Both the position numbers and the translations under genes were made by a program. The notes beneath the pieces are model-generated. The model ran no database searches, was not told where the DNA came from, and worked only from the letters and a program-made list of their open reading frames with translations. Below are positions 4,001 through 61,158 of a stretch of DNA of 64,000 nucleotides, piece after piece; within the stretch, counting starts at the first letter, position 1; each line of letters opens with the position of its first letter. The stretch is from a virus: IMG/VR virus record IMGVR_UViG_3300035701_000003; one strand, given 5' to 3'.

Positions 4001-5062
4001 CTTAAACTCGAGAAAATAACAGTTAGAATGCAAAATGGAACTAATCAAGGTATTTATATAAGAGGTAACAATACTTCAGAAGGACTTAATGTTATATATA
4101 TAGATAGTTGTACTGTTACTTGTTATGATAAAAATTTCACAACTTGGTTAATGCGTATAGATGGTTACCCCGGCCCCGGTACAACTAGACTCGATTCTGT
4201 TTTTGTAAGATATGGATTTTATAGAAATTGGATGATAACTCCGCAGGACATTCAAAAGGACGCTATTATAGCACAGTATGCGCAAAATATATTTATTATA
4301 GGAAACGATGTTGCTGTTATGAATGATTATAATGTTTTCGATACACAAGCTCATAATGATTGCTTTGCAACCGACAATATTTGCAAGAACGTTACTATAG
4401 CATTTAATAGATTATTTAACTGGCAGGCGAACAACGGGAGATCCCAAGTTCTTATTTGTAGTGTTGATGGATTTTTTAAAATTTATGCAAATATAATAGC
4501 TTCACCTTATTTTAGAATAAATGGTCAGGCTTGGCCCTCTACTTTAAATATGGGAGGGTCCAGTAATTCTCCAACTTGTTACATTTTCAATAATACCTTT
4601 ATAGGGGGTTCTAATCCTTACGTAGTTCAGATAGACGGCGCTATAAATACCCCACAGACTCGTCTTAAGAATAATATTATTTATTCTATGTACCCGTGTG
4701 ATTCTGGTACTAACCCCCGAGTTCATTTTAGAACAACTTCCCCGACTTGGAATTATATAGATGGTAACTTATATGCGGAATATTCCGATGGAAGTACTAA
4801 TAATTTGATTAGTAGTTATACCATGACTCAATTAAGAGCCTCTCCAAGATTCGCTGAAAGTATAGGTATTGGTTCTGATAGATGGAATATATCAAACTCA
4901 ACTATATTTACAAATATAGCTACTTGGGATTTAACATTAAAGGTAGGTTCCGCCGCTATTGATAAAGGAGTAGATTTAACTGGTGAGGGCGTAGAATATA
5001 CAAAAGATATTACAGGAAAGACTAGAACAGGTTCTTGGGATATTGGAGCTTACGAAAAGTAA
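1055..5062 (+). CDS. 1335-aa protein: hydrophobic N-terminus, four Ig-like repeats, two beta-helix domains (possible polysaccharide-binding/depolymerase protein)
   Basis: N-terminus MYRKVNAFLRTLLYIVISFMITGG; four ~97-aa repeats; two domains starting PLYVE(G/H)GHFIS.NGSNT.PY.TW.KA and ending (D)xGxYE. Confidence 0.75.
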   Translation: MYRKVNAFLRTLLYIVISFMITGGTFPQVHKIIIGNKISGPSQVDSLPSTFVFNDITGAELSTLYTSNGVTLTNFDSAYAYGGGKEFRVNLGSWGSSYKRVHRDDVVYIRNTSSGSYLTTVNATLTVGGVSDVYSITTKASIIDTIPADFQFADQLNAELSTLYSSNGITLNAFDSSYAYAAGKEFKVNSGSFSSTIRRVHRNDIVYIRNTSSSSYSTIVNATLNIGGVTDVYSITTKAPPDTIPASFVFTPVTNAALSTLYTSNGVTLTSLDSAYAYATGKEFKVNSGSFSSTIRRVHGNDVVYIRNTSSGSYSTTVTATLTVGGVGGIYSITTSTAPDTVPATFAFNDITGAELSTLYTSNTITLTNFDSAYAYAAGKLFQVNSGSFSATRRKVYNNNTVRIQNTSSSSYLTTVDATLTVGGISDTYSITTRSATPPLYVEGGHFISKNGSNTVPYNTWAKACTNWTASSPLWPYLNIGDTIWVDGGADSTNYTGVVQIDNKTGTAALPIVITKGISPGHNGEVWFDGQDATNKNFILHGCKYMKVQRINTYRGGILIDENGSSLVNVIYLDSIKVRNSYTQGIEISGYPATSNVDSVLVRWCDIRNDRVTSTETDGIAFSFMTNFFALNNNIYVNNQNASHVDCIMGYASVSGQSITNVTIARNHMINYSQKTGYPSNADNGVIMSELVGTIKIYDNFLAEPRFDSNAGIGFFTTGTNFLLYFYNNTVVTNTSNNALQIATYAGTINPASEIKNNIFYSKASSSAYEFSSSITAANINYNCYYYTTGNTSICNYGGTKNLAQMKTAGAETNGINTNPLLANPNYANIAHFDDRLQAGSPCINIGLNTLGSDYAKDRVDYIRTGSWDMGDYEYAPLYVEHGHFISPNGSNTSPYDTWQKAQTTVSSSSIWSQVTAGDTVWVDGGVGYDSLVYNTNMDIQTSGNANALVVVRAGKTPGHYGKVVIAGSTSGTNITIQDRKYLKLEKITVRMQNGTNQGIYIRGNNTSEGLNVIYIDSCTVTCYDKNFTTWLMRIDGYPGPGTTRLDSVFVRYGFYRNWMITPQDIQKDAIIAQYAQNIFIIGNDVAVMNDYNVFDTQAHNDCFATDNICKNVTIAFNRLFNWQANNGRSQVLICSVDGFFKIYANIIASPYFRINGQAWPSTLNMGGSSNSPTCYIFNNTFIGGSNPYVVQIDGAINTPQTRLKNNIIYSMYPCDSGTNPRVHFRTTSPTWNYIDGNLYAEYSDGSTNNLISSYTMTQLRASPRFAESIGIGSDRWNISNSTIFTNIATWDLTLKVGSAAIDKGVDLTGEGVEYTKDITGKTRTGSWDIGAYEK
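1180..2360 (+). repeat. Four tandem ~290-bp coding repeats (Ig-like/beta-sandwich units)
   Basis: Repeated F.F.....A.LSTLY.SN..TL..(F/L)DS.YAY..GK.F.VN.GS....R NTSS.SY.T...ATL..GG....YSITT; bounds approximate. Confidence 0.85.
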
Positions 5063-6555
5063 TGAAGAACTGGAGACAAATATTAGGTTGGCAAGTTCAG
5101 AATAGTTATACTGTTGAAGAAATGATAACGATGTTAGCTCCTCACCAAATATGGAAGGACGCTCGAGACTACTCTTATCTTTTTATGATAGGTGATGTAA
5201 TTGAAGTTGTATGGAAAGAGAAGGATTCTGGCGGGGAACCGCGGTATGTTATACAAGAGGCCATATGGGCAAGTTCTCTTCACAGTAGAGTATCTCCTGG
5301 TTGTTTCGCTTATCTTTATCTAGATGCCGGCCCTTTTGAATTATTGAGTGAAGAAGATATAAATAAACTCTCTTGGCAAGTATTCTTAGGAGATATAGAC
5401 CCTATGGACAGAGGTATTATGGCTAGTTTACTAACCGCTGACGATGATCATGTAGTAGCTTTATTATGCATACCTTCCGATACTACTATAGATGATATAG
5501 CTAAAGATATGATCGATTCGGGGTTTACTGAAGAAGCTTTTTTGTTTCAAGATATGGTAAAAAGAGCAAAAGGAGTAGCATGGGAGGCTACCGATGAATT
5601 CTCTAACGTAATGAGAATAGAGGAAATTAAAAGATATTATAAAGTACATTATCCCAACGACGAACTAAACTTTATTCCCGACTGGTTGAAGGTTAAAAAG
5701 GCTTTTAAGGAGATAGTAGATAGTTATAACCTTCCTGATAAAGAATCCTCTAAACTATCATGGCAAGATTCGACTTATGGTGGTAAATATGATATTGGTG
5801 CTTTAGTATTTGACCCGCTATCTAAAAGATTTGGTAAGGTTACTTTTGTAGGACCTTTAAGTAAAGTAGAAGGACTAGATAAGGGTAAACAAGTTTATTT
5901 AACAAAATATAAAATAAGAAACGAGAAAAAAGATATTCCTTCAGAAGATGACCCTACCGTAATGCTTTTGGACTTAAACGTAGGATTCGCCCACTATGAA
6001 GGAAATATACAATCTCCCAACGAATTTATGACTATAGACCCTCCTAAGACTGTTATAAGAGGTTTAACAAGTGGTGTTAAGAAGGTAAAGAAACTGCCAG
6101 AGGAAGGGGATTCCCACGAAGATATATTCGAAACTTCTTCCCCCAATCATACTTACTTTAAAGACGCTAGACTTTCTTTAGAAGTAGTTGGACAAGGAAT
6201 ATTCAAACTATCATGGCAAATACAAGAACCAGTTTTAAAAGTAGGGGATAAAGTAAAGATAATAGCATTTCTTAAAAAATTAAGAGATTTGGATATTGTT
6301 TTTTACGCTCGGAATACTGACGAATTCGATCCAAATACTATTTATGAGGTAGCATCTATAGATACTAGCGAGGTTGGAACGATGGGTATTTATAGTGATA
6401 ACATGTGGGTAAACATAAGAGAAAACTCAATGGGGGCTGGTTGGTGGATTCCTTATCATTATTGGCAGGAATTTTTAGAGATAGTAGAATCTAAAGAAGC
6501 ATCTTTAACACCCGCTGATAAAGAAGAATGGCTACAAATAATAGAAGGGGGATAA
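5062..6555 (+). CDS. Modular linker-motif protein (putative internal head polyprotein)
   Basis: Likely start is the ATG at 5062 overlapping the upstream TAA (TAATG); begins MKNWRQILGWQ; three KLSW linkers; SH3-like units. Confidence 0.7.
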   Translation: MKNWRQILGWQVQNSYTVEEMITMLAPHQIWKDARDYSYLFMIGDVIEVVWKEKDSGGEPRYVIQEAIWASSLHSRVSPGCFAYLYLDAGPFELLSEEDINKLSWQVFLGDIDPMDRGIMASLLTADDDHVVALLCIPSDTTIDDIAKDMIDSGFTEEAFLFQDMVKRAKGVAWEATDEFSNVMRIEEIKRYYKVHYPNDELNFIPDWLKVKKAFKEIVDSYNLPDKESSKLSWQDSTYGGKYDIGALVFDPLSKRFGKVTFVGPLSKVEGLDKGKQVYLTKYKIRNEKKDIPSEDDPTVMLLDLNVGFAHYEGNIQSPNEFMTIDPPKTVIRGLTSGVKKVKKLPEEGDSHEDIFETSSPNHTYFKDARLSLEVVGQGIFKLSWQIQEPVLKVGDKVKIIAFLKKLRDLDIVFYARNTDEFDPNTIYEVASIDTSEVGTMGIYSDNMWVNIRENSMGAGWWIPYHYWQEFLEIVESKEASLTPADKEEWLQIIEGG

Positions 6556-6557
6556 TA

Positions 6558-7334: not shown

Positions 7335-7834
7335 TAACTTACTGGAATCAATTTATAGCTACATTCAAGGATATTTTATTAGCATCTTTGTTCTTTGCTA
7401 TATGCGCATTTTTAAATGCTTCTATGGATGTAACTAAAGATAAATTTTCTTCTAGTGTTTACAGTAAAATCTCCGAACCCGGCACTGCCACTTATAAATA
7501 CTTTGAAAGTGACTGGAGAAACAAATGGGAAACCTGGCCAGATGGGGGGTTAATATTGGATAAGGATGGTAATAAGATTCCAAAATGGTTTTTAGGAATA
7601 CATATTGTACCTTTGAATCACCCCATGTTTTTTGATAGTTGGCATCTGTTTAAATCTGCAATGGTATTTTTCTTTGGAGTAACATTAATTGTTCTTTATT
7701 TTAAAGCTGCTAAAATTATATTTAAATTTAATAAGTGGTATTACTGGGTCGTATTAGGAATAGTGTTAGTATGGTTCTTTCTCGACTGGAATATTGTGTT
7801 TAATCTATTTTATGATCATTGGCTAATGGTATGA
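7331..7834 (+). CDS. Multi-pass membrane protein
   Basis: Three to four hydrophobic stretches; ATGA-coupled at both ends. Confidence 0.65.
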   Translation: MITYWNQFIATFKDILLASLFFAICAFLNASMDVTKDKFSSSVYSKISEPGTATYKYFESDWRNKWETWPDGGLILDKDGNKIPKWFLGIHIVPLNHPMFFDSWHLFKSAMVFFFGVTLIVLYFKAAKIIFKFNKWYYWVVLGIVLVWFFLDWNIVFNLFYDHWLMV

Positions 7835-10023
7835 ATGAACCGGACTTAAAACTAAGTTGGAAAGTTGAGATACTTCCGGACTCTAAAGAAATTCTTAAGG
7901 ATAAATCATGGAGCGATTCTAATTATGAAAAACAGACTCAATACTGGGTGGACGATGCTCGAGTGAAATCAGAAGCCTACCAAAAATATATTTTCTTTAT
8001 AATAGATAACGGGCATATAACACCAAGTTCTCATAGTATTTTTAATGCTTACATAAATGAGAATAAAGATAATTTAACTATAGAGGAGATAGCACAAGCT
8101 TTAAATGACTTATGGCCTACCACCGACGAAGATTCTAAGGACTTTTTACTGTATAATGCTCGAAGATTAGGAATAAAAGAATCCTCCTCCAAATTAAGTT
8201 GGCAAGTACAAGAGCCTTCCTCCTTCGAGGAACTGGTTGGATATTTAATACATTATGGTAGTCCCCTTTCTCACAGTTACTACCGTAATGAATATGGCGT
8301 AATAACTAGTGTGGTAACATCCGACGACCCCAAATATAAGGATACAATTTTACTCTGGGGGTTTTGGGCGGGTTCTGCTGAAGACGCTTTATATTATTAC
8401 GAACACCCCCAGAAGCTAGTCGAATCTAGATTACCTTCTTTTTGGCCCGTGCCCCTTACCGATTTTGATAAAATAAAAGTTATTAAAGAAGTAACTATTT
8501 CTTCTCTTAAACTCTCCTGGCAGACCTTTAATATCTATGAAGGTAAATATAGAGAAGGACCTGGTTTCGATTATATAGTTACTAAGGATGGTAAACCTTT
8601 TTCTCACGTTACTTCTCTCGCTATAGAAAATCATTCTCCTACTGGATTCGCTTGGGGTTACGGTGGTTCTGGACCCTCTCAACTCGCACTCGCCATCCTT
8701 TATGATCATACTAATGATGCTGAATTTGCTAAAAAATGGAGATGGGCATTTAAGGATGATTATACTTCCAAATGGCCCTCTAATAGAGATTGGCAATTAT
8801 CCGGAGATGAAATAGATAATTGGATAAACGAAAAGACTATACAAAAGGAATCCTGGGTTATTAGAAGAACTCTCTCTAAAGGCGAAATAAGAGACTTGAT
8901 AACTTCGGTAGGTTTAACTCCTATTAATTTCTACATGGGCAAACGAACTAGAAGAGTAGACGCTGGTTACTTAGTAAATGATAAATGGGAAAATATCCCT
9001 GGGGAAATGATTGAGAAATTAAAAAGTGAACTGTCGGCTCTTACTCCGGAAGGGAGAATAGAGCAATCAAGGTATAAAGGAAAAAGTATAATAGTAAAAG
9101 TCCCTGTTTATAGAGATACCCCTAACTTGCCTTGGAGGGAAGTTAAAAAACAATTAAAAGCTTTAGGGTTTGATAGAATAGATGTTATAACAGGAACCAC
9201 CGAAATAAGAGTGGATGTTTGGGGAATAGACGACCTTCATCCTACTCATAGAAGGGAAATGGTTCGTGAAATTACTACTATATTAAGACAATTCAATCCT
9301 AATTTTAAAGCCTATGAAACCAACTTACCAGGTTACTTTACCTTTACAGCACCAATAAAAATACAAGAATATCCAGATGAAGTTACTTCTAGTTTAGAAA
9401 AAGAATCTTGGGCTATGACTAAGAATATGAGTAAGCAACGCTTAAGGGAAATAATAAATGAAGTAGGTTTAACTGCTTTAAACCTTTATATAGGACGCCG
9501 CCAAAGAAAAGCGTTTGTAGGTTATAGACCTAATAATAGATGGGAAAATATACCTCCGGAAACCGTACAGCTTTTGAAAGATAGACTAGAACAAGAAGCC
9601 CCCGATACGGAAGTACAATTCCCCATTACCAGTCCTTATTTTCAATATTTAGGCCCCCGCGTAAGTGAAAAAGCCAAAAAGTTTCTAGTTATTTTCGTAT
9701 CTATAAAAAGAGATAGACAATTGCTTCCAGTAAAAGAAGTTAAGGATGCTATTAAAGAGAAATTTCCTCAGTATGAAGTTAGACTTTTTACTCGAACTAA
9801 TGAAATAGAAATTTCTATTGATACTCCTTGGAATATAGAAGGTAGATCCGAAAATTTAAGAGGGCCGACTAAAGAAGCAAGATGCCAAGAATTACTAAAT
9901 ATATTAAAACAGTTTAATACTAATACTATAATATCACCGTCTAATAATTGGCGGAGGAACGAATCTGGATATCATTTCCTTATTCCCTTTTCTCCTTATC
10001 AAGAATATGTTACTGGAGAATGA
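7831..10023 (+). CDS. Modular linker-motif protein with a DUF6166-like unit and two paralogous C-terminal domains
   Basis: Three KLSW and two KESW linkers; HSPTGFAWGYGGSGPSQLALAIL resembles DUF6166 (from recall); ATGA overlap at 7831. Confidence 0.7.
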   Translation: MNEPDLKLSWKVEILPDSKEILKDKSWSDSNYEKQTQYWVDDARVKSEAYQKYIFFIIDNGHITPSSHSIFNAYINENKDNLTIEEIAQALNDLWPTTDEDSKDFLLYNARRLGIKESSSKLSWQVQEPSSFEELVGYLIHYGSPLSHSYYRNEYGVITSVVTSDDPKYKDTILLWGFWAGSAEDALYYYEHPQKLVESRLPSFWPVPLTDFDKIKVIKEVTISSLKLSWQTFNIYEGKYREGPGFDYIVTKDGKPFSHVTSLAIENHSPTGFAWGYGGSGPSQLALAILYDHTNDAEFAKKWRWAFKDDYTSKWPSNRDWQLSGDEIDNWINEKTIQKESWVIRRTLSKGEIRDLITSVGLTPINFYMGKRTRRVDAGYLVNDKWENIPGEMIEKLKSELSALTPEGRIEQSRYKGKSIIVKVPVYRDTPNLPWREVKKQLKALGFDRIDVITGTTEIRVDVWGIDDLHPTHRREMVREITTILRQFNPNFKAYETNLPGYFTFTAPIKIQEYPDEVTSSLEKESWAMTKNMSKQRLREIINEVGLTALNLYIGRRQRKAFVGYRPNNRWENIPPETVQLLKDRLEQEAPDTEVQFPITSPYFQYLGPRVSEKAKKFLVIFVSIKRDRQLLPVKEVKDAIKEKFPQYEVRLFTRTNEIEISIDTPWNIEGRSENLRGPTKEARCQELLNILKQFNTNTIISPSNNWRRNESGYHFLIPFSPYQEYVTGE

Positions 10024-10027: not shown

Positions 10028-10855
10028 ATGAATGAATTAGTTGCTTTAAGTAAAAGACATCCCCTTTGTAAAATATGCACTGTATTCGAAGACGACCTCC
10101 TTAACGACATTACCCTTGATATAGTATTACAAAGGAAAACGTATAAAGAAATATGTGAATGTTACTCTAAACTATTACCCCCTAACATCCCTGATATAAA
10201 CGATATTAATGTTAGAAATCACAAAAGACATTGCGATCCTGGCTTACTAGCTAAGGAATACTTACAACAACAGGGTATGGCTATTACTCCAGGTGAGATT
10301 GCTGTAAAGTTATACGCAGAAATTTATAAGGATGAGATTGATAAGAACAACACATTAAATGAATTGTATAGAGAAAGAATCAAAAATATGCAATCTCTTC
10401 AATTAGTGCTAGATGAAAAGCATTTAAGAGCCGATGAATTGGAAAGAACTTTACAAAAAGCAAAAGATGAAAGACAACCAGATTCTGTTATAAACGATAT
10501 GGCTTACCGGTTAAAGGAAATACAAGGTGATATAAGATCCTATATTAAGCAGATAGATTCCATGCAAGGGGAAGTTCAAGATGTAATATTAAAAGAGAAG
10601 CAGGCTGAAAAGACCCCGATGGAAGGGACTATCTATGTTACTCAAAACTATGTAAATATATTTCAAGTTCATATGCAATCCTTTCTTGATGAATTAGTAC
10701 CTTCAATGTTACAAGAGTTTAGAGATATTCCCGAAAGAGGAAAGAAAACCATACAACTAATTACATCTTGTATGGATAGACATATTGGCTCTGCTCTTGA
10801 TGAAACTAAGTTATTAAAGTATACAAAAGGTAAAAAAATATTAAATGGAGACTAG
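10028..10855 (+). CDS. Terminase small subunit (probable)
   Basis: N-terminal HPLCKIC...NHKRHC helical/HTH-like region, coiled coil, position upstream of TerL. Confidence 0.55.
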   Translation: MNELVALSKRHPLCKICTVFEDDLLNDITLDIVLQRKTYKEICECYSKLLPPNIPDINDINVRNHKRHCDPGLLAKEYLQQQGMAITPGEIAVKLYAEIYKDEIDKNNTLNELYRERIKNMQSLQLVLDEKHLRADELERTLQKAKDERQPDSVINDMAYRLKEIQGDIRSYIKQIDSMQGEVQDVILKEKQAEKTPMEGTIYVTQNYVNIFQVHMQSFLDELVPSMLQEFRDIPERGKKTIQLITSCMDRHIGSALDETKLLKYTKGKKILNGD

Positions 10856-11216
10856 ATATACCGATACTAAGAGTAGAGGGTTGAAGATTTTATCTTGGCA
10901 AGTACAACTGCTTACTTGGGGCGATTTTCTAAAAGAGGTAGGCCCCAATCAAATTTGGGAAGCCAAGAATGGTCCGGGACTCGCGGGGCATTATTTACAT
11001 ACTACTATAGAATCTAATACGTATCCTCTTTGGATGACCCATATAGATATTACAAGGGCGCTATGGTTACCTCAAGTGGATTACTCTTTATCCGATGACG
11101 ACCACCATGCTTATAGGTTAATACAACTATATTTTGTATTTATAGGTTATAAAACCTATATTCTTATTACCGCTTGCGTTGTCGAGTCCCGCGGACCTTT
11201 TATGAGGGTTAAATAA
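10845..11216 (+). CDS. Small linker-motif protein between the terminase genes
   Basis: LKILSWQVQ near N-terminus; P.QIW segment resembles the first unit of the 5062 ORF. Confidence 0.6.
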   Translation: METRYTDTKSRGLKILSWQVQLLTWGDFLKEVGPNQIWEAKNGPGLAGHYLHTTIESNTYPLWMTHIDITRALWLPQVDYSLSDDDHHAYRLIQLYFVFIGYKTYILITACVVESRGPFMRVK

Positions 11217-11231: not shown

Positions 11232-13745
11232 TTGTCTAAAATTATAAGTTTCTCAGACTACGCTAACGATCTTATCGATAGTTCCATATCTTCTTACGGA
11301 GAAATAGAACCGTTAGATGCCTTTGCATTTATAACCTCTTCAGATTATTTAAACGAAGATCCTACCCCCTTTCAAAGTTTAGCTATTAAAACTCTTTACA
11401 ATCTTTGGGGTATATATCCCCCTATCTTAGAGGAAGAAGAACTAATAAGAATTCTCTACAGAGATTGGAATATAAAAGTAGAATTAGATAGAGAAGACCC
11501 TGTTACTCATTTTATAATGGTTTTAGGTCGAAGGAGTACTAAATGCTTAACGGGAGATTCCGAAATAATAGATGCTAATATGGGGAAGATTTATAAGTTA
11601 GGAGATTTATATGAATATAATTTACATCCCCCGATTTTTACATTAAAGAATGATTTTAAATTTACTAAAACTACTGATTACAGAGTACTTGATAATGGAA
11701 TTAAACCCTGTTATAAAATATTAACTAAGACTGGGAGAACCTTAGAGTGTACTGATAACGAACCCTTTTTAACAATTGAGGGATGGAAAGAACTTAAAGA
11801 TCTAAAAGAAAAAGATAGAATAGCTGTACCTTCTGTTTTACCTATCTTTGTAACTGATAAAGTTATAACGAAGAACGCAGCTAAAATGGATAATGCTTTT
11901 ATTACTTCTATCCCGAAAGAAATTTGGAATTATGTAGATAAGATAAGAATCGGAAAAGGATTAAAGAAACAGGATATACGAAAAGTGAAAAAGATTAGTG
12001 AATACTTAGACGATACCTATCTTAAGAACTTAGTTAAAGCTGATGTAATTTGGGATCCTATTAAAAGTATCGAGTACGTTGGGAAGAAGCAAACTTACGA
12101 TTTAAACGTGCCAGATACTCATAATTTTATAGCTAATAATATTGTAGTACATAATAGTACTTTAGCATCTTTCTTTGCTACTTATGCTCTTTACACCCTT
12201 ATATGTAGAGGTAATCCCCAAAAATATTATGGAATAAGAGAAAGGCATCCTATTTATGTAACTCACGTGGCTGCTAAAGGAAAACAGGCAGAAAGCGTTT
12301 TTATACTAACTAAAGATAATCTGAGAAAAGTTCCTTTCTTTGACCCTTACTTAGATTTTGATAAAGATAGTCTTACAGAACTCCGACTTTTTACTCCTTA
12401 CGATAAATACCTTAACGATCAGATTAAACAGATGAATATATTACTTCCAAGAGGAGAACTTAAAAAGCCGAAGAGGCCCGGTTCGTTATATGCGAAATCT
12501 ATTACTACATCCGCAGCTACTAATAGAGGCGATGCTACTTTTATGTTAATGCTTTCCGAGTTTGCGCACTTCTTAAGGGCTAGGATGGATCCTTCTAAAA
12601 CAGCAGACCAGGTAGCGGAAGAAAACCCTCAGAGTGATTATGCTATTTATAAAGCTTTAGTACCCGCTGTTAAAGACTTTGGAGAAGATGGTAAGATTAT
12701 ATTGGAGTCATCCCCTGCAGAAAAAGGTGGGGAAATGTATAGACATTATGGTATTGCTGGAGGTTCCGAACAAGAAGGTGGGCAGACTATGGAGAGGGAA
12801 GTAGGTTATGCTTTATTACAATTACCTACTTGGGCCGCGAGACCCAGTATATCAAGAGAATCATTAGCATCTGAATTTAGGAGCGATTCAGTGGGGGCCA
12901 ACGCTGAATATGGGGCTCATTTTCTTAATCCTTCTATGGCTTTTATATCTGAGAACGTTATAAATAGTATTCCTCAACCGGAAAGGGGTATAATACTTAG
13001 AAATCCAAGTAACTGGAGATTCGTTATATGTTTAGATCCAGGGGGAAAGGCTAAAGTTAAAGTGGCCGATACTTACGCTTTAGGATGGGGGCACGCTGAC
13101 GTTAAACCCGACGAAAGAGATACCACTTATTGGATAGATGGATTTAAAGGATGGGATGCTATTCCAAAAGATATAGGTTTTGGGAAAATAGAAACAATAC
13201 CTGTGGACCCCAACGAAGTTTTGAACTATTTAATAGAGTTAATAAAAGACTTAGGAGGGAGAAACTTTGTATTAGAAATATGTTATGATCAATGGCAAAA
13301 CCAACAAGCTGTATCTTCTCTTCAAGCTATAGGATTACCGGCTATCGAGACTACTTTTACTAATCCTTACAAAGGTCAGATGTATGGAGATTTCCTTTCT
13401 AAAGCCGAACACGGTCAAGTAAAAATGTATGGTCAAGATACCGAAGGTTGGGTAGATAGATGGAAACTGGAAATGAAATACTTACAAAGAATAATATCTG
13501 GTAAGTATACTTATTTTAAACATCCCGATTCTGGCCCCGTAAGGCACGATGACTTCGCCGATGTTGCGAGTAACATTGTTCACAGACTTTCTATTTGGAG
13601 TTATCCTACTAAAGAAACTACCGAAAGAAACATATTAGACAAACAAGGTAGACCAGTACGAAAACGAACTACTGTATATCCAGTAAAAGGGCCTGGTTTA
13701 TATAGAGGAAGTCCATTGGGCGGTAGAACTTCAGGAGGGCGTTAA
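11232..13745 (+). CDS. terL: Terminase large subunit, intein-interrupted
   Basis: Walker A GRRSTK|S split by intein; Walker B-like LMLSEFAH; ESSP coupling motif; RNase H-like nuclease ICLDPG...D and C-terminal HDDFAD. Confidence 0.9.
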   Translation: MSKIISFSDYANDLIDSSISSYGEIEPLDAFAFITSSDYLNEDPTPFQSLAIKTLYNLWGIYPPILEEEELIRILYRDWNIKVELDREDPVTHFIMVLGRRSTKCLTGDSEIIDANMGKIYKLGDLYEYNLHPPIFTLKNDFKFTKTTDYRVLDNGIKPCYKILTKTGRTLECTDNEPFLTIEGWKELKDLKEKDRIAVPSVLPIFVTDKVITKNAAKMDNAFITSIPKEIWNYVDKIRIGKGLKKQDIRKVKKISEYLDDTYLKNLVKADVIWDPIKSIEYVGKKQTYDLNVPDTHNFIANNIVVHNSTLASFFATYALYTLICRGNPQKYYGIRERHPIYVTHVAAKGKQAESVFILTKDNLRKVPFFDPYLDFDKDSLTELRLFTPYDKYLNDQIKQMNILLPRGELKKPKRPGSLYAKSITTSAATNRGDATFMLMLSEFAHFLRARMDPSKTADQVAEENPQSDYAIYKALVPAVKDFGEDGKIILESSPAEKGGEMYRHYGIAGGSEQEGGQTMEREVGYALLQLPTWAARPSISRESLASEFRSDSVGANAEYGAHFLNPSMAFISENVINSIPQPERGIILRNPSNWRFVICLDPGGKAKVKVADTYALGWGHADVKPDERDTTYWIDGFKGWDAIPKDIGFGKIETIPVDPNEVLNYLIELIKDLGGRNFVLEICYDQWQNQQAVSSLQAIGLPAIETTFTNPYKGQMYGDFLSKAEHGQVKMYGQDTEGWVDRWKLEMKYLQRIISGKYTYFKHPDSGPVRHDDFADVASNIVHRLSIWSYPTKETTERNILDKQGRPVRKRTTVYPVKGPGLYRGSPLGGRTSGGR
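11544..12155 (+). mobile_element. Mini-intein (204 aa, no endonuclease) in TerL Walker A
   Basis: Starts CLTGDSEI, ends HNFIANNIVVHN followed by Ser(+1); DnaB-type intein blocks; no LAGLIDADG motifs. Confidence 0.93.
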
Positions 13746-13746
13746 T

Positions 13747-42249: not shown

Positions 42250-42573
42250 ATGGAAAAGACGTCTTTAAGTTTTGAAGATTACTTAAATACAGATATTTCT
42301 GATGTTATTTATAAAGATCACAAGTATAATTTATCTAATAAAACTGTTAATATTATTGTTACTAGTCCTTTTGACGTAGAAGACGATACAAATAACCTAA
42401 TATCTCTAGAAGCTGGTGATAGACTAATTATAACAGGATTACGGCCGGATTTTTATGAGATGAAATACAATGAAATTACAGTTTATCAACATTATAAAAT
42501 AGTAGATAAAAATACTGTACTAAGTAAGCAAATAGAAGGTAATTGGAGAGAGGTGTTACAATGTTTAAAATGA
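42250..42573 (+). CDS. Hypothetical protein (SH3-like; C-terminal NWREVL motif)
   Basis: LEAGDRLII segment; GNWREVL. Confidence 0.55.
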   Translation: MEKTSLSFEDYLNTDISDVIYKDHKYNLSNKTVNIIVTSPFDVEDDTNNLISLEAGDRLIITGLRPDFYEMKYNEITVYQHYKIVDKNTVLSKQIEGNWREVLQCLK

Positions 42574-45476: not shown

Positions 45477-48400
45477 ATGGGAAATTTCTGGAAAATATTT
45501 TCGCTTGAATTACCTAAAGGAGAAGACTATTCTGATTATTACGATTCTATAGATGTTTCACCTCCTGAAACAGAAAATTGGAGTCCTACTGAAAGAAAAA
45601 GAAAAATAAACCCTCTGAAGTTTCGTTCTGAAGATGATGATAATATGATGTTTTTTGAAAAAGGTTTACATCAAACTATAAACAACCCCGAATCAGAACG
45701 TCCTCTTACACCTTACGGCGGATTAAACTTTTCTACTCCTGATTACTGGATATCTCCTACTGGAAATAGTATACTATCTACTCCCGATCATATCAGAAGT
45801 ATTTTTAAATATCTAGGACAGATAGATTCCACACTACTCGATAATTTTAAAGAAGGCAAAGACGTAGAAGAAATTATTCAAAAGGTTATTGCTAAAGGTT
45901 GGATTAGAGTTATAACAGATAACATGGTAGCACACTTTGAAGTTTCTAGGTTTACACCTCGAGAGAAACATCTTATCGAAGATTTTTTAGTTGCTAAAAC
46001 CATAGATAAATTAGCAATATATACTACCGGTGGTATAAAGATTTTTGAAGGCACTGCAGGAGAGTTTTTTGATTTTGATAAATTCAGTAGTTTGAAACTA
46101 GGATGGAGAGTACCTCAAGTAGGAGATGAAATATATAATAACATAACCGGCGAGATCGGAAGACTTGTTGCTATAGGAACCCCTTCTGAATTACGGAACT
46201 GGGCCGCGTGGAATCTAAAGAATGACTTTCATTTTCATATATCCGACGTGATAGACGGGGCTTTAGTAAGCGAAGATAAGCAATATTGTATAGTTAGATC
46301 TTTAGGAGGAAAGTACTATGACCTTTTACCTTTAGAAGAAGTAGACTTAAATAAATTCTCCTGGCAAATAAGTTACGAAAATAAACTAGAAGAAATAGAC
46401 GATCTTTGTCACTACATAACTGACGATAGCGGTTATACTTGGGAGCATGGAATTACTTTAAAAGATTTAAGAAGAGTATGGCCGGAATTTCTTAACGAAT
46501 ATAATATTAATTTCTTATATTCTAGGGGAGGAATGTTTGTATTATATGAAGATATTGAGAAATCTATTAAAGAGAACTGGAAAAAACTCTCCTGGCAAGT
46601 GCAGGAGGAATTCAGACTTTTATCTCCTCAAGAATTACAGAGATCTTATTATAAATTAAGAGGGCTCGAGGATACTTTTAGTTATAATATAAATCCCACT
46701 CCCGGTAATCCTATTTTAAAAATCTTACTTAGTTTAACTCCAACTAGTGGATGGTTTAATACGAATGCTTATGTATTTGAAAAAAGTGGTAAATATTTTG
46801 AAGTTGTGTTATATAAACCCGACGCGCGAATTACTATTCATAATGATCAATCCCGGGAACTCGAGAATTATTTACGTGCTATAAGCACTACTGGTTCTTT
46901 TAAATTCAGTAAAAAAGAACCAAGTGACGCTCAATTAGATGCAGGTAACTATAAGAAGAAATATGTAAAGAAAGATGGTTTAGATATTTCAATTGAAAAT
47001 GAAAAAGGTTCTACAAGGTCTGGTACTGATAAGGATGGTAAAGAGTGGTCGACGAAGATGAAAAACGACTACGGTTACATTAAAGGTACCGTAGGTAAAG
47101 ATAAGGACCATTTAGATTGTTTTCTTTCTAATGACTATAAAGAAGACCAACTTGTATTTATAATAAACCAAACTACAGAAGGCGGAAGATTCGATGAGCA
47201 TAAAATAATGTTAGGTTTTGCTAATAAAAAAGATGCTGAGGATGCCTATCTTGATAACTATGAAAAAGGATGGAAGAATTACAAAGATATTGCTGAAATG
47301 TCTATGGACGACTTTAAGGAGTGGTCAAAACATAAAACTAAAACAAAAGAACCCGCAGAAGAGATAAAAAAAGAATCTTGGAAACTTCCTGATTTACAGA
47401 CTTCCTTAAAACCAGGCGCTGTTTTTAGAATGCAATTTTTCGGTTCCCCTAATTATCAATATTTTTATATTAAAGAGTTAAAAGGCATAATTAAAGATTA
47501 TTTTAAAACTGAGTTTCCAGAACATACTTCCGAAGATTTCAACGATGTTAATTTACAACAATATTATGGTATTTACTCTGCTAAGTCTTTAGGTGAATTG
47601 ATAGAAAGGTATAAACTCGGATATTTTACTTCTGGGTTAGGTATTTTCTTAAGTCCTAATTGGCTAGATGATATGGAATATTTGGGGCAGATAGAAGACG
47701 TAATTAAAAATTATGATACTACTAACAAACAATCTTCTCTTAAATTTTCCGACCCTCTTACTTATACTGATAAAAGTGATATTGACGAAGATAAAAAAGA
47801 ATTTGACGATAGGGCCTTAGTTTTTCAGCAAGCAGAACCTCTTGTTCCAGAGGCGCCTAAAGATACTATGTGGATTGAACCCTCTGAAAAAGATTTTCCA
47901 CGTCCCGGTAACGAACTTGAACTAATGCATCTGGATACTGATGACAATACTATTTTACAGAACGAAGTTCCGAGAAAGAAGACTATAGCATGGCAAATAC
48001 AACCCGACTTCGAGGAATTCGAAAAAATACTAAAACAACGCGGTTACTCTTATTATATTGATAACTATACTCTTATTATAGATTATAAAGGTTCTGTTTA
48101 TCTTTATTCTCTTACTACTCTTCCTGATAACATACAGTTTAATAATAAAGGTTATGTTGATCTTTCTTCTCTTACTACTCTTCCTGATAGCATACAGTTT
48201 AATAACGAAGGTTATGTTGATCTTCCTTCTCTTACTACTCTTCCTGATAACATACAGTTTAATAATAAAGGATATGTTAACCTTAATTCTCTTACTCAAT
48301 TACCTGAGAACACGCAATTTAACAACAAAGGAGATGTTGAACTTCGCTTTCTTACTCAATTACCTGAGAACATACAATTTAACAATGAAGGATATGTTTC

Positions 48401-49484
48401 CCTTCGCTCTCTTACTCAATTACCTGAGAACATACAATTTAACAATGAAGGATATGTTTCCCTTGATTCTCTTACTCAATTACCTGAGAACAAATATGAT
48501 ATATTTAAGAATGAAGGAATAGTATACTTATACTATAACCTCAGAAACGATAACTGGTCTAGATTCGACCCAAGATTAAGAGAAGGTAATTTGAAATTAG
48601 GTTGGCAAACTCCCAAAGCATATGAGCCGTCTCCTCGAGAAAAATTATCTCCTTGGTTTCAATCTTATACCGCCGTTTTAGAATATCCTCCCGGAACGCT
48701 CGGTGAGGAAGAAGGTTGGTCTGAAGAATTTGATATATATGCTATAAATGAATATTACGCGAAACAATTTGCTGAAGAATACGCTAAAGATATTTATATA
48801 TCTGGTTATAAACTAAAAGTAGAACTTAATTTTGGAATATCTTCTTCCCTTAAACTTGGTTGGCAAATACAAGAAGAATTTGAACGAGGAGATGTAGTGA
48901 GTTTCGAGTATACCTCCACAGGAAGTGACAAGACTTATACTGCTATTGGTAACTATTGGGGTAGGGATAATAGCAATACTAAATATCCGGTAGTATTAGA
49001 AAACGTTTATTATGGTTTATTACCTATTACGCGCATAGGGACTATAAGAATAGCTGATAACGTTCCTTTATATTTAATACGTAAGACTACTACTTCTTCT
49101 TTAAAATTAGCGTGGGAGGCCGCAAGAAGTGTATGGTTAGGCTACTGGGCAATACCTGGTAATCAAGATATAAATCCAAACAGAGAACAGGAGAACTGGA
49201 CTACTATTATTTACGCTGATACGGATGACTTTAAAAAAGCAGTAGATGTAATGAAAGAGAAATTTACGAATTACCTAAAGATGCATTTCCCCGAAGCTTA
49301 TAGAACTGGTTTTCACTTTAATACTGGTTACTTATGGGCTCTTAATAGTGAAAAACTTACAAATTTAACTAAAATTTTATCAAAGGAAGAAATTAATAAT
49401 TTTATGAATGATAGTATAGTAGTAGTTGACAAGAAACCCTTCCCGGTAACCGTAAGCGGTGGTGGAGCTATAACAAGATTATGA
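45477..49484 (+). CDS. 1335-aa polyvalent linker-motif polyprotein with inorganic pyrophosphatase-like domain and LRR cassette
   Basis: ISIENEKGSTRSG...YGYIKGTVGKDKDHLDCF...DEHKIMLGF; about 10 linkers. Confidence 0.85.
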   Translation: MGNFWKIFSLELPKGEDYSDYYDSIDVSPPETENWSPTERKRKINPLKFRSEDDDNMMFFEKGLHQTINNPESERPLTPYGGLNFSTPDYWISPTGNSILSTPDHIRSIFKYLGQIDSTLLDNFKEGKDVEEIIQKVIAKGWIRVITDNMVAHFEVSRFTPREKHLIEDFLVAKTIDKLAIYTTGGIKIFEGTAGEFFDFDKFSSLKLGWRVPQVGDEIYNNITGEIGRLVAIGTPSELRNWAAWNLKNDFHFHISDVIDGALVSEDKQYCIVRSLGGKYYDLLPLEEVDLNKFSWQISYENKLEEIDDLCHYITDDSGYTWEHGITLKDLRRVWPEFLNEYNINFLYSRGGMFVLYEDIEKSIKENWKKLSWQVQEEFRLLSPQELQRSYYKLRGLEDTFSYNINPTPGNPILKILLSLTPTSGWFNTNAYVFEKSGKYFEVVLYKPDARITIHNDQSRELENYLRAISTTGSFKFSKKEPSDAQLDAGNYKKKYVKKDGLDISIENEKGSTRSGTDKDGKEWSTKMKNDYGYIKGTVGKDKDHLDCFLSNDYKEDQLVFIINQTTEGGRFDEHKIMLGFANKKDAEDAYLDNYEKGWKNYKDIAEMSMDDFKEWSKHKTKTKEPAEEIKKESWKLPDLQTSLKPGAVFRMQFFGSPNYQYFYIKELKGIIKDYFKTEFPEHTSEDFNDVNLQQYYGIYSAKSLGELIERYKLGYFTSGLGIFLSPNWLDDMEYLGQIEDVIKNYDTTNKQSSLKFSDPLTYTDKSDIDEDKKEFDDRALVFQQAEPLVPEAPKDTMWIEPSEKDFPRPGNELELMHLDTDDNTILQNEVPRKKTIAWQIQPDFEEFEKILKQRGYSYYIDNYTLIIDYKGSVYLYSLTTLPDNIQFNNKGYVDLSSLTTLPDSIQFNNEGYVDLPSLTTLPDNIQFNNKGYVNLNSLTQLPENTQFNNKGDVELRFLTQLPENIQFNNEGYVSLRSLTQLPENIQFNNEGYVSLDSLTQLPENKYDIFKNEGIVYLYYNLRNDNWSRFDPRLREGNLKLGWQTPKAYEPSPREKLSPWFQSYTAVLEYPPGTLGEEEGWSEEFDIYAINEYYAKQFAEEYAKDIYISGYKLKVELNFGISSSLKLGWQIQEEFERGDVVSFEYTSTGSDKTYTAIGNYWGRDNSNTKYPVVLENVYYGLLPITRIGTIRIADNVPLYLIRKTTTSSLKLAWEAARSVWLGYWAIPGNQDINPNREQENWTTIIYADTDDFKKAVDVMKEKFTNYLKMHFPEAYRTGFHFNTGYLWALNSEKLTNLTKILSKEEINNFMNDSIVVVDKKPFPVTVSGGGAITRL
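47988..48610 (+). repeat. LRR cassette copy C (seven units; mosaic of copies A and B)
   Basis: 5' and 3' ends near-identical to copy A; middle near-identical to copy B. Confidence 0.9.
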
Positions 49485-49505: not shown

Positions 49506-50429
49506 ATGAACTGGAGAAAGATTTTCTCAAAATCCGAACATATTAAAGATAGTTTTAAAAACTATAAAATACCCGATTCTAAAGGGGAACTTCCAAATAG
49601 GGCGGATTTCTCTGGAGACAAGTTTCCTAAATCTGGGGACTCCGCGAAGGTGGAGTTAAACGCATGGCATGCTGGTAATAGTACTTACAAAAAAGATAAA
49701 GGAGTAGAAGATAAATCTAAAATACCTTCTCCTATTATTGAAGAAAAGAATCGAAGAGAATTTGTTGGTGATAAAACCATGGAGAGAAGAAGTGGCTGGA
49801 GAGGTAATTTAATGACATTGGGCGAAGTTACTTTTCGACAAAGAAAGGATGGCGATATTGAAATAGATGTTTCTGATACTAATAAAAATACCTTCGAGGA
49901 TAAAGAACTCGAACCCCTTACTGATATTAAAACTGAATCTAATTGGAGAAGCGTTCTTTCTATGGGGGGCGAACCCAATATAGAATTTACCAGAAAGGAA
50001 GATGGAGTATACAAACTTTTAGTTACTCAACCCAATGTTAGCCATCCACAACCGGAAGTAGCGGAGGAGAACAATATTAATCAAAACGATACACTCTCCC
50101 CAACACCGCCACAACCTGGGGCGATTACGCCCTCATCGCCTCAGGATCTTACTCCAACTACTTCTTCTAAAGATTGCGGTTCTTCTTCTAAAGATATGAA
50201 GGAATGGGTAATTCGAAAGGATGGTAATTTAAGTTTAATTGGCAGAGAATGCGCTGATAAAGCCGGTATTTTTATAATAAATAATAATAGTTCCAAATTT
50301 GGTAAGAGAGCTTCTCAGACAACTATCGAACAAGAAGTTATAGAGAAAAAAGGAAGGACTTGGCGCGAATTAATTAATCAGTCTGTATGGGAATACCGAT
50401 TTGAGGAACTTGTTAAAAATGGTAAATAA
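49506..50429 (+). CDS. Head-region protein sharing a motif with the scaffold-like protein
   Basis: MNWRKIFS leader; ADFSGDKFP...KVELNAW matches ADFTGDKWP...EVELRNW in the 51666 ORF. Confidence 0.65.
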   Translation: MNWRKIFSKSEHIKDSFKNYKIPDSKGELPNRADFSGDKFPKSGDSAKVELNAWHAGNSTYKKDKGVEDKSKIPSPIIEEKNRREFVGDKTMERRSGWRGNLMTLGEVTFRQRKDGDIEIDVSDTNKNTFEDKELEPLTDIKTESNWRSVLSMGGEPNIEFTRKEDGVYKLLVTQPNVSHPQPEVAEENNINQNDTLSPTPPQPGAITPSSPQDLTPTTSSKDCGSSSKDMKEWVIRKDGNLSLIGRECADKAGIFIINNNSSKFGKRASQTTIEQEVIEKKGRTWRELINQSVWEYRFEELVKNGK

Positions 50430-54029: not shown

Positions 54030-56311
54030 ATGATTCTATTGAATTCAAGGAAACCAGGTGAAGGATTTGCGCTTAAGAAAGAAGCTGCAAATGTTCCTTT
54101 AACGGATCCTTACAGAACTTATGAAAGGTCTGTAACAGACGACGATTCTATTTGGCAAGCTCTAACTACGGAAGCCGGCCGTCAAGCTCTCGGAGCTTAA
54201 TTATTGGGTTCCTAATTTCGCTATATGCTGGAACATCTCGTTATAACCTAGCCGTACTTAGTTTTAATAACTAAGTAAAAATCGGAGAGTAGAGACAATC
54301 AGCAGGAAAATAAAAGATGAGTAAGTTGACTTTTATGCTCCTCAGAGACTACACGCGAAACACTTTGGGATACTTTTCTAGAGTGAAGATATAGTCCGAA
54401 CTCTATAGCGATATAGAGAAGGTAACAGAAATGTTTACCTCCTTGCGAAAGTAAGAGTAACAAATTTGCAAATGGCTGTTCCTATTCGTGAAACTCTTGA
54501 CTACGTCGGTGTAGCAAGAAAGTTTTTCGAGATAGACGTATTAGCTCAAGGCCAGATAGCGCGTTATAGTCATAGCGCACTTTAAACTTTGCTATATGCT
54601 GGAAACCCTTAATAGACATTAGATACGGTGAAAACGTAATAATTCTAATGGCTAAGACAATCAGCAGGAAAGGAATATTTTCATATGGGAACTTTAGGTA
54701 AAAGATGGGAAGTCCCCCATCATCAAAAATATAAGAATATAGTTACTCGAGAAGTTTTAACAGATGCTACTATTAGAAGAATTTCTGATTATAAACTTTC
54801 GAAAGAATTAAAAGTTCCAGTAACTGCTATTCAGCACTACCGCTATAAATGGCAGATACCAAGCGCTCGGTATGATTCTGAGGTATCTAAGATGAGAGAT
54901 TATAAATTATCTCCTGAGGAAGTAGGGTTGATTATAGGCACTGTTCTTGGGGATGGTCATTTAAGTTATTCCCCCGAAAGAGACGAAGCTTTTCTTATTA
55001 TAATGCATTCTGAAAAACAGAAGGAATATGTATATCATAAATATGAAAAGTTAAAAAAACTTTGTTTAATGGATGTTAAGCAATCTTTGATAAGTAACGA
55101 TTACGTTCAAAATTCTGTAGTATATAGTTTTTCTACTATTTGGCATCCTGATTTAGCTAAATTGCATAAGATTATATATATAGATGGTAAAAAATCAGTT
55201 ACTAAAGAAGCTTTGAAGTTATTGACCATAGCTGGATTTGCTTGGTGGTTTTTTGATGATGGTGCTTTGGGCAAGAAATTACAACAGTATAGTTTAAGTA
55301 CTTGTCAATTCCCTTTAGACCAACAAAAGTTGATAAGAGAATTTTTATTTAAGAAATTAGGTATTTATTCTACTATAGTTAGATCCTACCATAGGCAGGC
55401 TCAAAAGTATTTTTATAGTTTGTATATACCTAAAAGATCTAATGAAACTTTAGTTAGTTATTTAAAATCTTTTTTAGTTCCCTGTATGGAATATAAAATA
55501 TGTTCCGTTCCTCAGAGACTGACACGCAAAGCTTCTAATAAAATAGAAGATGATACAGTCCGAACTTCATAGTGATATGAAGAGTGATACAGAAATGATA
55601 TCACCACTCCTGAAGGAGAAAGTAACAAGATAGTATGACAAAGATATAGACGTTCCTGCCTACGTTGTGTCAAAAAGAGGCAAGGTCAATGAGTGGAATG
55701 TAGAAGGTGAATATGTTGAACCAACTACTTGGGAAATTTTCTCTCCAGCTCAAATCAGATTATCTCAAATCCAACAGAGAAGGTTTAATATTCTTGATCG
55801 TACTCAGGAAAAGATCAGAATTCAAACCCAGATTCAGGAAGACGACCAGTTCTTGGCATTGTTAAATACTACAACTGCTGCTAATACTACTAACAATCCT
55901 TTGACTACCGGCACTTCTGGTTGTGATAAAGCCTTCTTGAACGATGTAACCGCTGTTATTATGGATCATGACTTACCATGTTATGGTTTGTTAATGAGAT
56001 TTGATTCCTTTAAGGATATCAGAGGTTGGGATAATACGGATTTAGATCCCGTAACGATGCGTGAGATTTTAGAAACCGGTTTATACGGACAAATTTGGGG
56101 TATAGATATCATAGTAAGTAGAAGGGTTACTAAAGGACAAGTTTATGCGATAGCTGAACCGAGATTCTTTGGAGTAATGCCTATAAGAACTGAAATGATA
56201 TTAATGCCTGATGACAATCCAAAACAGGCTACTATTGGATATGTTGGCTACGAAGAACTCGGAATGGCCGCCGTAGTTTCCAATGGTGTCGCCAAAGGAT
56301 ATCATAATTAA
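54030..56311 (+). CDS. Major capsid protein, three exons (54030-54197, 54469-54564, 55634-56311; 313 aa spliced)
   Basis: Spliced reading ...GRQALGA|QMAVPIRETLDYVGVARKFFEIDVLAQGQIAR|YDKDIDVPAYVVSKRG...RRFNILDRTQEKIRIQTQIQED is continuous and matches the large-phage MCP pattern. Confidence 0.92.
54198..54468 (+). ncRNA. Group I intron 1 in MCP (271 nt, no ORF)
   Basis: P1 GGAGCU/GGUUCC with U.G at the splice site; P AUGCUGGAA, Q AAUCAGCAGG, R CAGAGACUACACG, S AAGAUAUAGUCC; P3 UUUCGC/GCGAAA; terminal G 54468. Confidence 0.93.
54565..55633 (+). ncRNA. Group I intron 2 in MCP (1069 nt) carrying a LAGLIDADG endonuclease
   Basis: P1 GCGUUAU/AUAGCGC with U.G after exon 2; perfect P10 (GUCAUA with exon 3 UAUGAC); P/Q/R/S elements; P3 CUUUGC/GCAAAG; terminal G 55633. 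Confidence 0.93.
54685..55572 (+). CDS. Intron-encoded LAGLIDADG homing endonuclease (two-motif type)
   Basis: GLIIGTVLGDGHL and AWWFFDDGAL motifs; AAGGA RBS; starts after Q and runs into the intron core. Confidence 0.9.
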   Translation: MGTLGKRWEVPHHQKYKNIVTREVLTDATIRRISDYKLSKELKVPVTAIQHYRYKWQIPSARYDSEVSKMRDYKLSPEEVGLIIGTVLGDGHLSYSPERDEAFLIIMHSEKQKEYVYHKYEKLKKLCLMDVKQSLISNDYVQNSVVYSFSTIWHPDLAKLHKIIYIDGKKSVTKEALKLLTIAGFAWWFFDDGALGKKLQQYSLSTCQFPLDQQKLIREFLFKKLGIYSTIVRSYHRQAQKYFYSLYIPKRSNETLVSYLKSFLVPCMEYKICSVPQRLTRKASNKIEDDTVRTS

Positions 56312-57098: not shown

Positions 57099-57113
57099 AA
57101 AGGAGAATATCTA

Positions 57114-58477: not shown

Positions 58478-58480
58478 TAT

Positions 58481-59548: not shown

Positions 59549-59555
59549 TTTAATT

Positions 59556-60704: not shown

Positions 60705-60705
60705 A

Positions 60706-61158
60706 ATGAAAAATTGGAGAGAAGTACTTTTAAAATTGAGTTGGATCACCCAACCCTCTTTTTTTGATCAATCTTTTAATCATAATGAGTTTAGTAAACT
60801 TTTAAGAGATCTTTTAACAGAAGAAGGGCAATTTATTAGAGATAATAAAATTTATATTTACCCCGATCCTAATAGAATTAGCTTTGTATTCTACCCCGTG
60901 AAGACGGTATCCCACTTTATTTCTTGTAGAGTGTCCTTATATACGGCGTCTGTAAGAAGTAAACAACCTATGGATTATGTGGCTCAAGTAAGTTATCAAT
61001 ATAAAGGTTCTATTAAAGAAAAATTTGAAGGCGTTATTACTGATATAAATAGCGTAAGAGATATAGTTTCTAAAATGATTTCTCTTATTGAGAAAATTAA
61101 TTCTGAACTAGACATAAGGGATAATTCTGAACTAGACAGAAGGGAGGGTCGGTGGTAG
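60706..61158 (+). CDS. Single-unit linker-motif protein
   Basis: Begins MKNWREVLLKLSWITQP. Confidence 0.65.
   Translation: MKNWREVLLKLSWITQPSFFDQSFNHNEFSKLLRDLLTEEGQFIRDNKIYIYPDPNRISFVFYPVKTVSHFISCRVSLYTASVRSKQPMDYVAQVSYQYKGSIKEKFEGVITDINSVRDIVSKMISLIEKINSELDIRDNSELDRREGRW

Follow-up and report, generated by a model that had tools for sequence, protein, structure and literature searches.

Related targeting and processing systems

In bacteriophage T4 a leader of ten residues, the capsid-targeting sequence (CTS), is found on the internal proteins IPI-III and Alt, which are otherwise unrelated; it targets them to the prohead and is cut off by the protease gp21 (PMC9026906). In the giant phages phiKZ, 201phi2-1, and SPN3US numerous internal or ejection proteins are trimmed by the prohead protease, some of them at more than one site; these sites, which the capsid and scaffold proteins have as well, consist of the three residues S/A/G-x-E and serve mostly for the removal of N-terminal propeptides (PMC10052503, PMC5694885). 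One cleavage motif serves all substrates of the prohead protease in T4, phiKZ, and SPN3US (PMC9026906, PMC10052503). The polyvalent proteins of phages and conjugative elements, described by Iyer, Burroughs, Anand, de Souza, and Aravind (2017, PMC5512222), join many unrelated conflict domains (InPase, Fic/Doc, pentapeptide, methyltransferase, and phosphatases) and are encoded beside portal and head genes. They were predicted to be injected and processed, and autoprocessing by embedded MPTase domains was proposed; a peptide shared between the domains is not part of that description, in which the word "linker" is absent (PMC5512222). Here we describe a peptide tag that recurs in the proteins encoded by a stretch of 64,000 nucleotides of viral DNA (IMG/VR record IMGVR_UViG_3300035701_000003, in the following called the window), where it stands between the modules of large polyvalent proteins and also heads small proteins.

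The tag is composite and has three parts. Part N, M-x-N-W-R-x-[IV]-[LF], is an N-terminal leader of single-module proteins, part A is S-S-L-K-[LF]-[SGA], and part B is W-Q-x-Q-P-E; in the subclade to which the window belongs the leader N is followed by [SG]-W-Q-x-Q. Polyvalent proteins, the CTS, and head processing at multiple sites are known already. The example found in the window is clean, its tag is unusually long and comparison with relatives supports it well; in the literature that we searched, a shared tag which both punctuates phage polyvalent proteins and heads free proteins is not described.

The tagged proteins, in the following called carriers, fit the polyvalent proteins as the initial annotation of this DNA had proposed, since they hold multiple effector domains per protein, lie in a neighbourhood of head genes and include an InPase domain (PF18823, E-value 3e-51). 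The difference is that here one conserved tag stands at nearly every module boundary and in front of free-standing proteins. With the T4 CTS, on which Mullaney and Black reportedly worked in 1996, the tag has in common a short leader on unrelated proteins near the head genes, an encoded protease of the gp21 fold, and separable parts, targeting and processing being separable in T4 as well. By analogy, the NWR leader on single-module proteins would make the CTS the closest precedent. In contrast to the CTS, the tag recurs many times within single polypeptides as a joint between modules, the capsid and scaffold-like proteins lack the motif, and it is known from genes alone; the sequences are unrelated (NWRxIL / SSLK[LF][SG] / WQxQPE as opposed to MKTYQEFIAE with L/I-x-E in T4). 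The prohead protease of the giant phages belongs to the same class of fold, but the sites described here span 12-15 residues, are centred on a Trp, lie between modules and are absent from the capsid and scaffold-like proteins. The sites in the window do not follow the motif (S/A/G)-x-E and have K-[LF]-[SGA]-W as their conserved core. A formal likeness also exists to the polyproteins of RNA viruses (picornavirus 3C and potyvirus NIa sites), in which separate proteins are released from one translation product at a conserved junction peptide of 7-10 residues. Cleavage is putative here, and the comparison would be one of analogy without evolutionary relation, the window stemming from a double-stranded DNA tailed phage whose products would be virion cargo and not replication proteins.

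Occurrence and conservation of the peptide motif

The core motif [KH][LF][SGA]W is matched 29 times in the window, in two of the forward frames, and is not matched at all in the other four frames. All but one of the matches lie within open reading frames (ORFs) of at least 60 residues; against these 28, composition alone predicts 0.8, and 1000 shuffles of the proteome gave a maximum of five. The initial annotation had counted approximately 27 copies. An extended context, S-S-L-K-[LF]-[SGA]-W-Q-x-Q-P-E, is common to 27 of the matches, which are spread over the seven ORFs 5062, 7831, 28261, 30501 (nine copies), 43408, 45477, and 60706. The 28th match, HFGW in ORF 25635, has flanks dissimilar to the tag and looks like a chance match; it is the only one in the block from 13.9 to 28.1 kb, which had been described as free of the motif and, apart from this sequence without context, is so.

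A profile search yielded in addition about ten half-sites SSLK[LF]S without the Trp and four half-sites [SGA]WQxQ without SSLK, so that full and half sites total about 41 in the window, near the 45 or so that had been estimated with variants included. One of the four, a WQxQ-type leader site without the SSLK part, is found in ORF 10845. The site proposed for ORF 51262 (SSLKFE) is doubtful, as the Lys is replaced by Ser or Cys in the orthologues of two relatives (L002 and L003).

The copies are encoded in different ways. Ser is specified by TCT, TCC, TCA, or AGT and Leu by CTC, CTA, CTT, TTA, or TTG, and the mean pairwise nucleotide identity among the tag copies is 51%. With the codons varying this freely it is the peptide and not the DNA that is conserved, and selection at the peptide level, which had been suspected from the synonymous changes, is supported by the aligned sequences. 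The Trp is invariant across the strongly conserved copies, an Asp or Glu at the fifth position after the Trp is found at only about half of the sites, and the residues upstream of the tag are rich in Ser, Thr, and Lys.

The tag as a joint between modules

Dividing the carriers at the sites gave 46 pieces, which we compared all with each other. Only two module families turned out to be paralogous, an LRR-like module present in three copies and one pair of small modules, which rules out a repeated domain that includes the motif. Furthermore, no site is located inside any Pfam or PHROG domain match; in ORF 43408, for example, the DUF4240 domain (residues 461-565) fits between the sites at residues 451 and 584. 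The assumed position at domain boundaries was confirmed in that the tag is a short joint between mostly unrelated modules and lies outside of all Pfam domain matches. The structure prediction that had been suggested as a check, namely whether the linkers fall between folded domains, agreed in part. The AlphaFold model of ORF 43408 has a mean predicted local distance difference test score (pLDDT) of 72 with low-confidence segments at residues 172-189, 374-407, 518-550, and 578-595. Two of the three sites, 381 and 584, lie in inter-domain segments with a pLDDT below 50 (the second and the fourth), and the third site, 451, is found at the end of a helix of lower confidence.

Comparison with related genomes points in the same direction. 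Out of 74 internal ends of BLAST blocks shared with relatives, 34 are located at most ten residues from a site, while random placement gave 7.4 with a maximum of 18; some of the block ends may be drawn toward the sites by the shared motif itself. Even so, homologous modules are clearly placed in other proteins and arranged in another order among the relatives. The homology blocks end at the sites, so the modules have been shuffled at the tag. The modules are of single-domain size (70-200 residues), and the polyproteins look like concatenated units of a tag plus a module.

The carriers are all encoded on the plus strand. ORF 5062 (5062..6555) codes for a multi-module protein of 497 residues with the leader MKNWRQILGWQVQ (5068-5100) and internal K-L-S-W sites at residues 102, 231, and 382 (DNA positions 5365, 5752, and 6205); searches of Pfam and PHROG gave no match for this protein. 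The multi-module protein of ORF 7831 (7831..10023, 730 residues) has sites at residues 7, 121, and 227, and about ten residues past the third site there begins a DUF6166 domain (E-value 1e-24, residues 251-337 when numbered from the TTG start at 7819). ORF 10845 (10845..11216) encodes a small protein of 123 residues with a leader-type tag, ..GLKILSWQVQ, at residues 13-21.

The four large polyvalent proteins follow further downstream. ORF 28261 (28261..30498, 745 residues) has joints at residues 188 (part B only), 356, 460, and 541 (part A only), and the order of its modules is HExxH module (1-188), LRR-like module, two small modules, and methyltransferase (553-700). The largest carrier, ORF 30501 (30501..39221, 2906 residues), contains nine full tags (residues 495, 1125, 1269, 1378, 1497, 1691, 1774, 2422, and 2508) and at least five half tags with part A only (654, 1197, 1890, 2166, and 2281); its domains are pentapeptide repeats (353-420) and Fic/Doc (2652-2786). 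ORF 43408 (43408..45474, 688 residues) has tags at residues 381, 451, and 584, which follow a HAD phosphatase (Acid_PPase, 1-170) with a helical domain, a module of 70 residues, and DUF4240, respectively, the protein ending with a module of 102 residues. In ORF 45477 (45477..49484, 1335 residues) we find six tags (207, 293, 370, 1040, 1126, and 1210) and two half tags (753, part A; 838, part B), with the InPase at residues 461-654 and an LRR-like module at 839-1042. Each of these four carriers pairs unrelated domains of effector type: pentapeptide repeats and Fic/Doc in 30501, Acid_PPase and DUF4240 in 43408, InPase and LRR-like in 45477, and HExxH and methyltransferase in 28261. Pfam or PHROG matches support the flanking DUF6166, methyltransferase, pentapeptide, Fic/Doc, Acid_PPase (HAD), DUF4240, and InPase domains, the LRR-like module was recognised by its 20-residue LTQLPEN repeats, and the HExxH motif is located at residue 134 of ORF 28261; the domain types first read from the sequence (Doc, pyrophosphatase, HAD phosphatase, methyltransferase, DUF6166-like) could thus be verified.

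The tag as an N-terminal leader

The tag is not confined to the interior of large proteins. The small protein of ORF 60706 (60706..61158, plus strand, 150 residues) starts with MKNWREVLLKLSWITQPS, that is, with the leader N followed by K-L-S-W and a portion of part B. A conserved protein of the head gene cluster, ORF 49506 (49506..50429, plus strand, 307 residues), starts with part N only and has a second such motif, NWRSVLS, at residue 146; NWR-like N-termini are also present on its orthologues in L009 and L010. The N-terminal leaders in the window read MKNWRQILGWQVQ, MKNWREVLLKLSW, and MNWRKIF, and ORF 7831 starts with MNEPDLKLSWK. Altogether the M-x-NWR-x-[IV]-[LF] leader is borne by three proteins of the window (ORFs 5062, 49506, and 60706) and by small proteins of L002, L006, L009, and L010, and the pattern NW[RK]..[LIFVA] is matched six times with 0.78 matches expected. 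In the relatives the leaders MNSWRQILSWQ, MRNWRKTFSWQ, MDTLKLSWK, MVKLSWEF, MNLKLSWNAQ, MSNWRQAL, MSNWRQVF, and MENWRKLF are carried by small proteins encoded beside the portal and protease genes. The LRR-like module is internal in the window and directly follows the N-terminal MDTLKLSWK in L008. At the level of sequence, the equivalence of leader and linker is shown.

Motifs of the N type were also seen at C-termini. The small head-cluster protein of ORF 42250 (42250..42573, plus strand, 107 residues) ends with the leader-like ..EGNWREVLQCLK (NWREVLQCLK, 42541-42558), and a similar end, ..SGWREALNVKLS, is found in L009 (5174-5638).

A candidate prohead protease encoded among the carriers

ORF 41238 (41238..42248, plus strand, 336 residues) bears no tag and encodes a candidate prohead protease with the T4 gp21/assemblin fold. 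Its AlphaFold model (pLDDT 81.5) has the best structural match in T4 gp21 (5jbl; Z 8.6, root-mean-square deviation 2.9, 131 of 165 residues aligned), and herpesvirus proteases come next (Z 5-6.8), among them the varicella-zoster virus protease with a Z of 6.8. This match was recovered only by a wide search with VIA-align. A Foldseek comparison of the model with the PDB returned no significant match (T4 gp21 came fifth, E-value 1.0), a profile search against the PDB sequences gave no match, and the PHROG match to a head maturation protease is weak. The residues His83 and Ser181 are invariant in 28 homologues. By its modelled fold and its place next to the portal gene we regard the protein as a prohead protease; the initial annotation, which had named a protease at 41238, is corroborated on this point. 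A complex prediction of the protease with a linker segment of 36 residues (alignments A1 and A2) returned a score of 0.00, which counts neither for nor against an interaction.

Beside the strand of Ser181 the family has a conserved insertion, Cys-x2-Cys...Cys-x-His (C191, C194, C205, and H207), which looks like a zinc-binding knuckle; we know of no such Cys3-His insertion in T4 gp21. In the homologues P0052, P0064, P0070, and P0106 the protease gene contains an intein (PF14890), and the protein has 478 residues instead of approximately 336.

Distribution of the tag among relatives

A total of 112 metagenomic homologues of the 41238 protein were found, on contigs of up to 194 kb, but no cultured relative is close, the best match in the phage collection being gp19 of phage G with 26% identity. 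The relatives examined are characterised in the following by the identity of their protease with 41238. In L002 and L003 (72%) the tag reads S-[SQ]-K-L-S-W-Q-x-Q-P-E and in L006 (64%) SL[KR]FSW, and a single protein of L008 (54%, G+C content 28%) has nine copies of KKLSW[QAN]EPEN. L007 (61%) contains two or three copies of K-L-S-W; its polyvalent proteins (3233-6592, 13696-14685, and 16146-17258) are rich in MORN-like repeats (GQRHNTxGPA / YWVNGK) and have few tags. No strict K-L-S-W was found in the 13 kb examined of L009 (58%), where only ETLSWQG and KLAW occur. K-L-S-W thus spans most relatives with 54-76% protease identity, with a patchy distribution between 54% and 64%, and the NWR leader can be traced down to 53%. 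K-L-S-W is absent from L004 (51%), L005 (42%), L010 (53%), and L011 (45%), and neither a de novo scan of 10-mers nor regular expressions revealed a recurrent linker in L004, L005, and L011; L004 has only two A-like sites, TSAL[QK]F. Within its first 45 kb phage G has no motif of the K-L-S-W type, apart from a lone KLAW without shared context. In the more distant relatives there are, in this neighbourhood, many small genes that stand alone (methyltransferase, NUDIX, and others) and not fusions.

The orthologues of the HAD module keep ASQKLSW[QE]xQPE at about residue 390 and differ in the downstream modules. Two of them stop just past a half tag, with the ends ..GKSLKFAEG and ..GKGLKFMQQE. Many HAD-module proteins of the wider metagenomic relatives have S-x-L-x-[FL]-[GSN] right after the HAD domain (about residue 170), and several of them end at that motif (..AKLHFNRG and ..SQLNFNMYQP). 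The resemblance suggests that this motif may be an older, looser form of part A.

Possible function of the tag

The best explanation that we can offer is that the tag addresses proteins to the prohead, is cut by the 41238 protease and so frees separate effectors which are injected; we put it forward tentatively, as a possibility that falls somewhat short of being probable. Cleavage by a protease in general, be it 41238 or the zincin-like module embedded in ORF 28261, is rather probable. According to this proposal a composite short linear motif would label the cargo proteins of the virion, with single-module proteins starting with part N and each further module of the large polyvalent proteins being preceded by parts A and B. 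The tag would be recognised during prohead assembly, like the CTS of T4, and would then be cut by the 41238 protease, most plausibly between the small residue and the Trp ([LF]-[SGA]|W), a bond that we infer only because leader (..IL-G|W) and linker (..KL-S|W) have it in common. One late gene could in this way deliver many small effectors (Doc, the pentapeptide DNA mimic, phosphatases, pyrophosphatase, methyltransferase, and others), which would be injected together with the DNA. Packaging and cleavage are inferred just as the scissile bond and the enzyme are.

The proposal can be taken further. A three-part peptide code might address dozens of unrelated proteins to the prohead and mark the cuts, new effectors might be recruited by inserting units of tag plus module, and the fragments, beginning with Trp, might carry a degron read by ClpS and leave Doc short-lived; in this full form we consider the scheme doubtful. 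An N-terminal Trp is a degron of the bacterial N-end rule and is read by ClpS. If true, toxins such as Doc would be short-lived once injected by virtue of their Trp start. Should the tag be a signal for targeting and processing, it would account for the way in which giant phages, with few genes, load and release their large and rapidly changing sets of injected proteins for counter-defence and takeover. It would also give a concrete answer to the question, raised by Iyer et al. (2017), of the way in which working units are obtained from polyvalent proteins, and the tag could be used as a portable packaging-and-release signal for loading foreign proteins into capsids, as is the CTS of T4 today. 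The approximately 40 module boundaries marked in the window offer in any case a ready parser for new small effector domains in metagenomic phages.

Several observations speak against targeting and cleavage by the 41238 protease. Neither a tag nor a half tag is present in the capsid, decoration, portal, protease, and scaffold-like 51666 proteins. The 12-15 residues of the tag, compared with about three in known sites of prohead proteases, suit a binding motif equally well. The first modules of the four large polyproteins are without a leader, and some tags begin 2-4 residues from the start Met (MDTLKLSW and MVKLSW), where a cut would free only a tiny peptide. An embedded HExxH module offers an alternative protease.

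Some of these points would be accommodated if the tag were an uncut docking or packaging motif, the copies of which bind a component of head assembly (the scaffold, the portal, the inner capsid surface, or the non-catalytic tail of the protease) so that whole proteins are loaded by avidity, somewhat like the cargo-loading peptides of encapsulins or like the T4 CTS without its processing half. The long and strongly conserved motif with its invariant Trp would fit a binding function, as would its occurrence at N-terminal, internal, and near-C-terminal positions (the ends ..GKSLKFAEG and ..NWREVLQCLK), the copies next to the Met, where cutting achieves little, and the missing tag in canonical protease substrates. 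Yet the cellular targets differ from domain to domain, the point from which Iyer et al. (2017) argued for processing (PMC5512222), the modules have the size of single domains and the same types are found free and leader-bearing in relatives, suggesting that they act separately, and the pattern of a hydrophobic and then a small residue on the P side resembles a protease site. We regard docking without cleavage as rather unlikely.

Alternatively the tag might be cut not by the prohead protease but by the zincin-like module with the HExxH motif (ORF 28261, residues 1-188), in cis or in trans and either ahead of packaging or once injected, a role which Iyer et al. (2017) had proposed for MPTase domains. 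A preference for large hydrophobic residues at P1' is common among zincins and would suit a cut before the Trp, and with an enzyme other than the prohead protease the missing tag in the capsid, scaffold-like, and portal proteins would be accounted for. An Atlas feature search places the module near the SprT-like, DUF3920, and Zn_peptidase_2 clusters with scores of 0.92-0.94, but these scores rest on 150-157 shared features, which is below the usual level of true family members, and residues 1-188 have no Pfam match, MPTase included, even at an E-value of 5. Homologous modules are present within polyvalent proteins of L002 and L006; in the examined parts of the tag-bearing L003, L007, and L008, which are partial loci, the module was not found. 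Cleavage of the tag by this module is in our view unlikely. Finally, a merely favoured flexible joint or recombination scar which travels with the shuffled modules and is recognised by no factor would agree with the exchange of modules at the tag and with the low-confidence prediction and the Ser/Thr/Lys-rich upstream residues, which are consistent with disorder, but it is very improbable because the copies, so dissimilar in DNA and with varying synonymous codons, are not recent duplicates, because the invariant Trp and K-L-S-W are kept across 54-100% protease identity and 28-39% G+C, and because such a joint would not sit at the extreme N-terminus of single-module proteins.

Genomic context

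The window has a G+C content of about 34%, and all long ORFs are on the plus strand. Its genes are those of a large tailed phage, and the tag belongs to a clade of jumbo phages which are uncultured and have Bacillus phage G as a distant relative. The carriers flank the genes for terminase, portal, and protease and sit upstream of the capsid gene, with matching synteny of carriers and head genes in L003, L006, and L008. The gene for the large terminase subunit (11232..13745, plus strand; phrog_17415) contains an intein (Intein_splicing, E-value 1e-21, residues 151-308) and adjoins the tagged genes between 5062 and 11216, which can therefore be considered as packaging- or head-proximal. The portal protein (39218..41218, plus strand) is untagged and has its closest cultured relative in gp14 of Bacillus phage G (32% identity).

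The gene for the major capsid protein, which has no delta domain and no tag, consists of three exons (54030..56311, plus strand) at about 54030-54187, about 54419/54472-54567, and 55634-56311, separated by two group I introns. The first intron (54188-54418; Rfam RF00028, Intron_gpI, 77.8 bits) has no ORF, and the second (about 54568-55633) houses a LAGLIDADG homing endonuclease gene (54685-55572). We had considered ORF 51262 as the first capsid exon, with a propeptide ending in SSLKF, and rejected this assignment given the location of the exons and the lack of conservation of the Lys. Another homing endonuclease gene, of the NUMOD3 type (50401-51261), separates the conserved head genes 49506 and 51262; L002 does not have it at this position.

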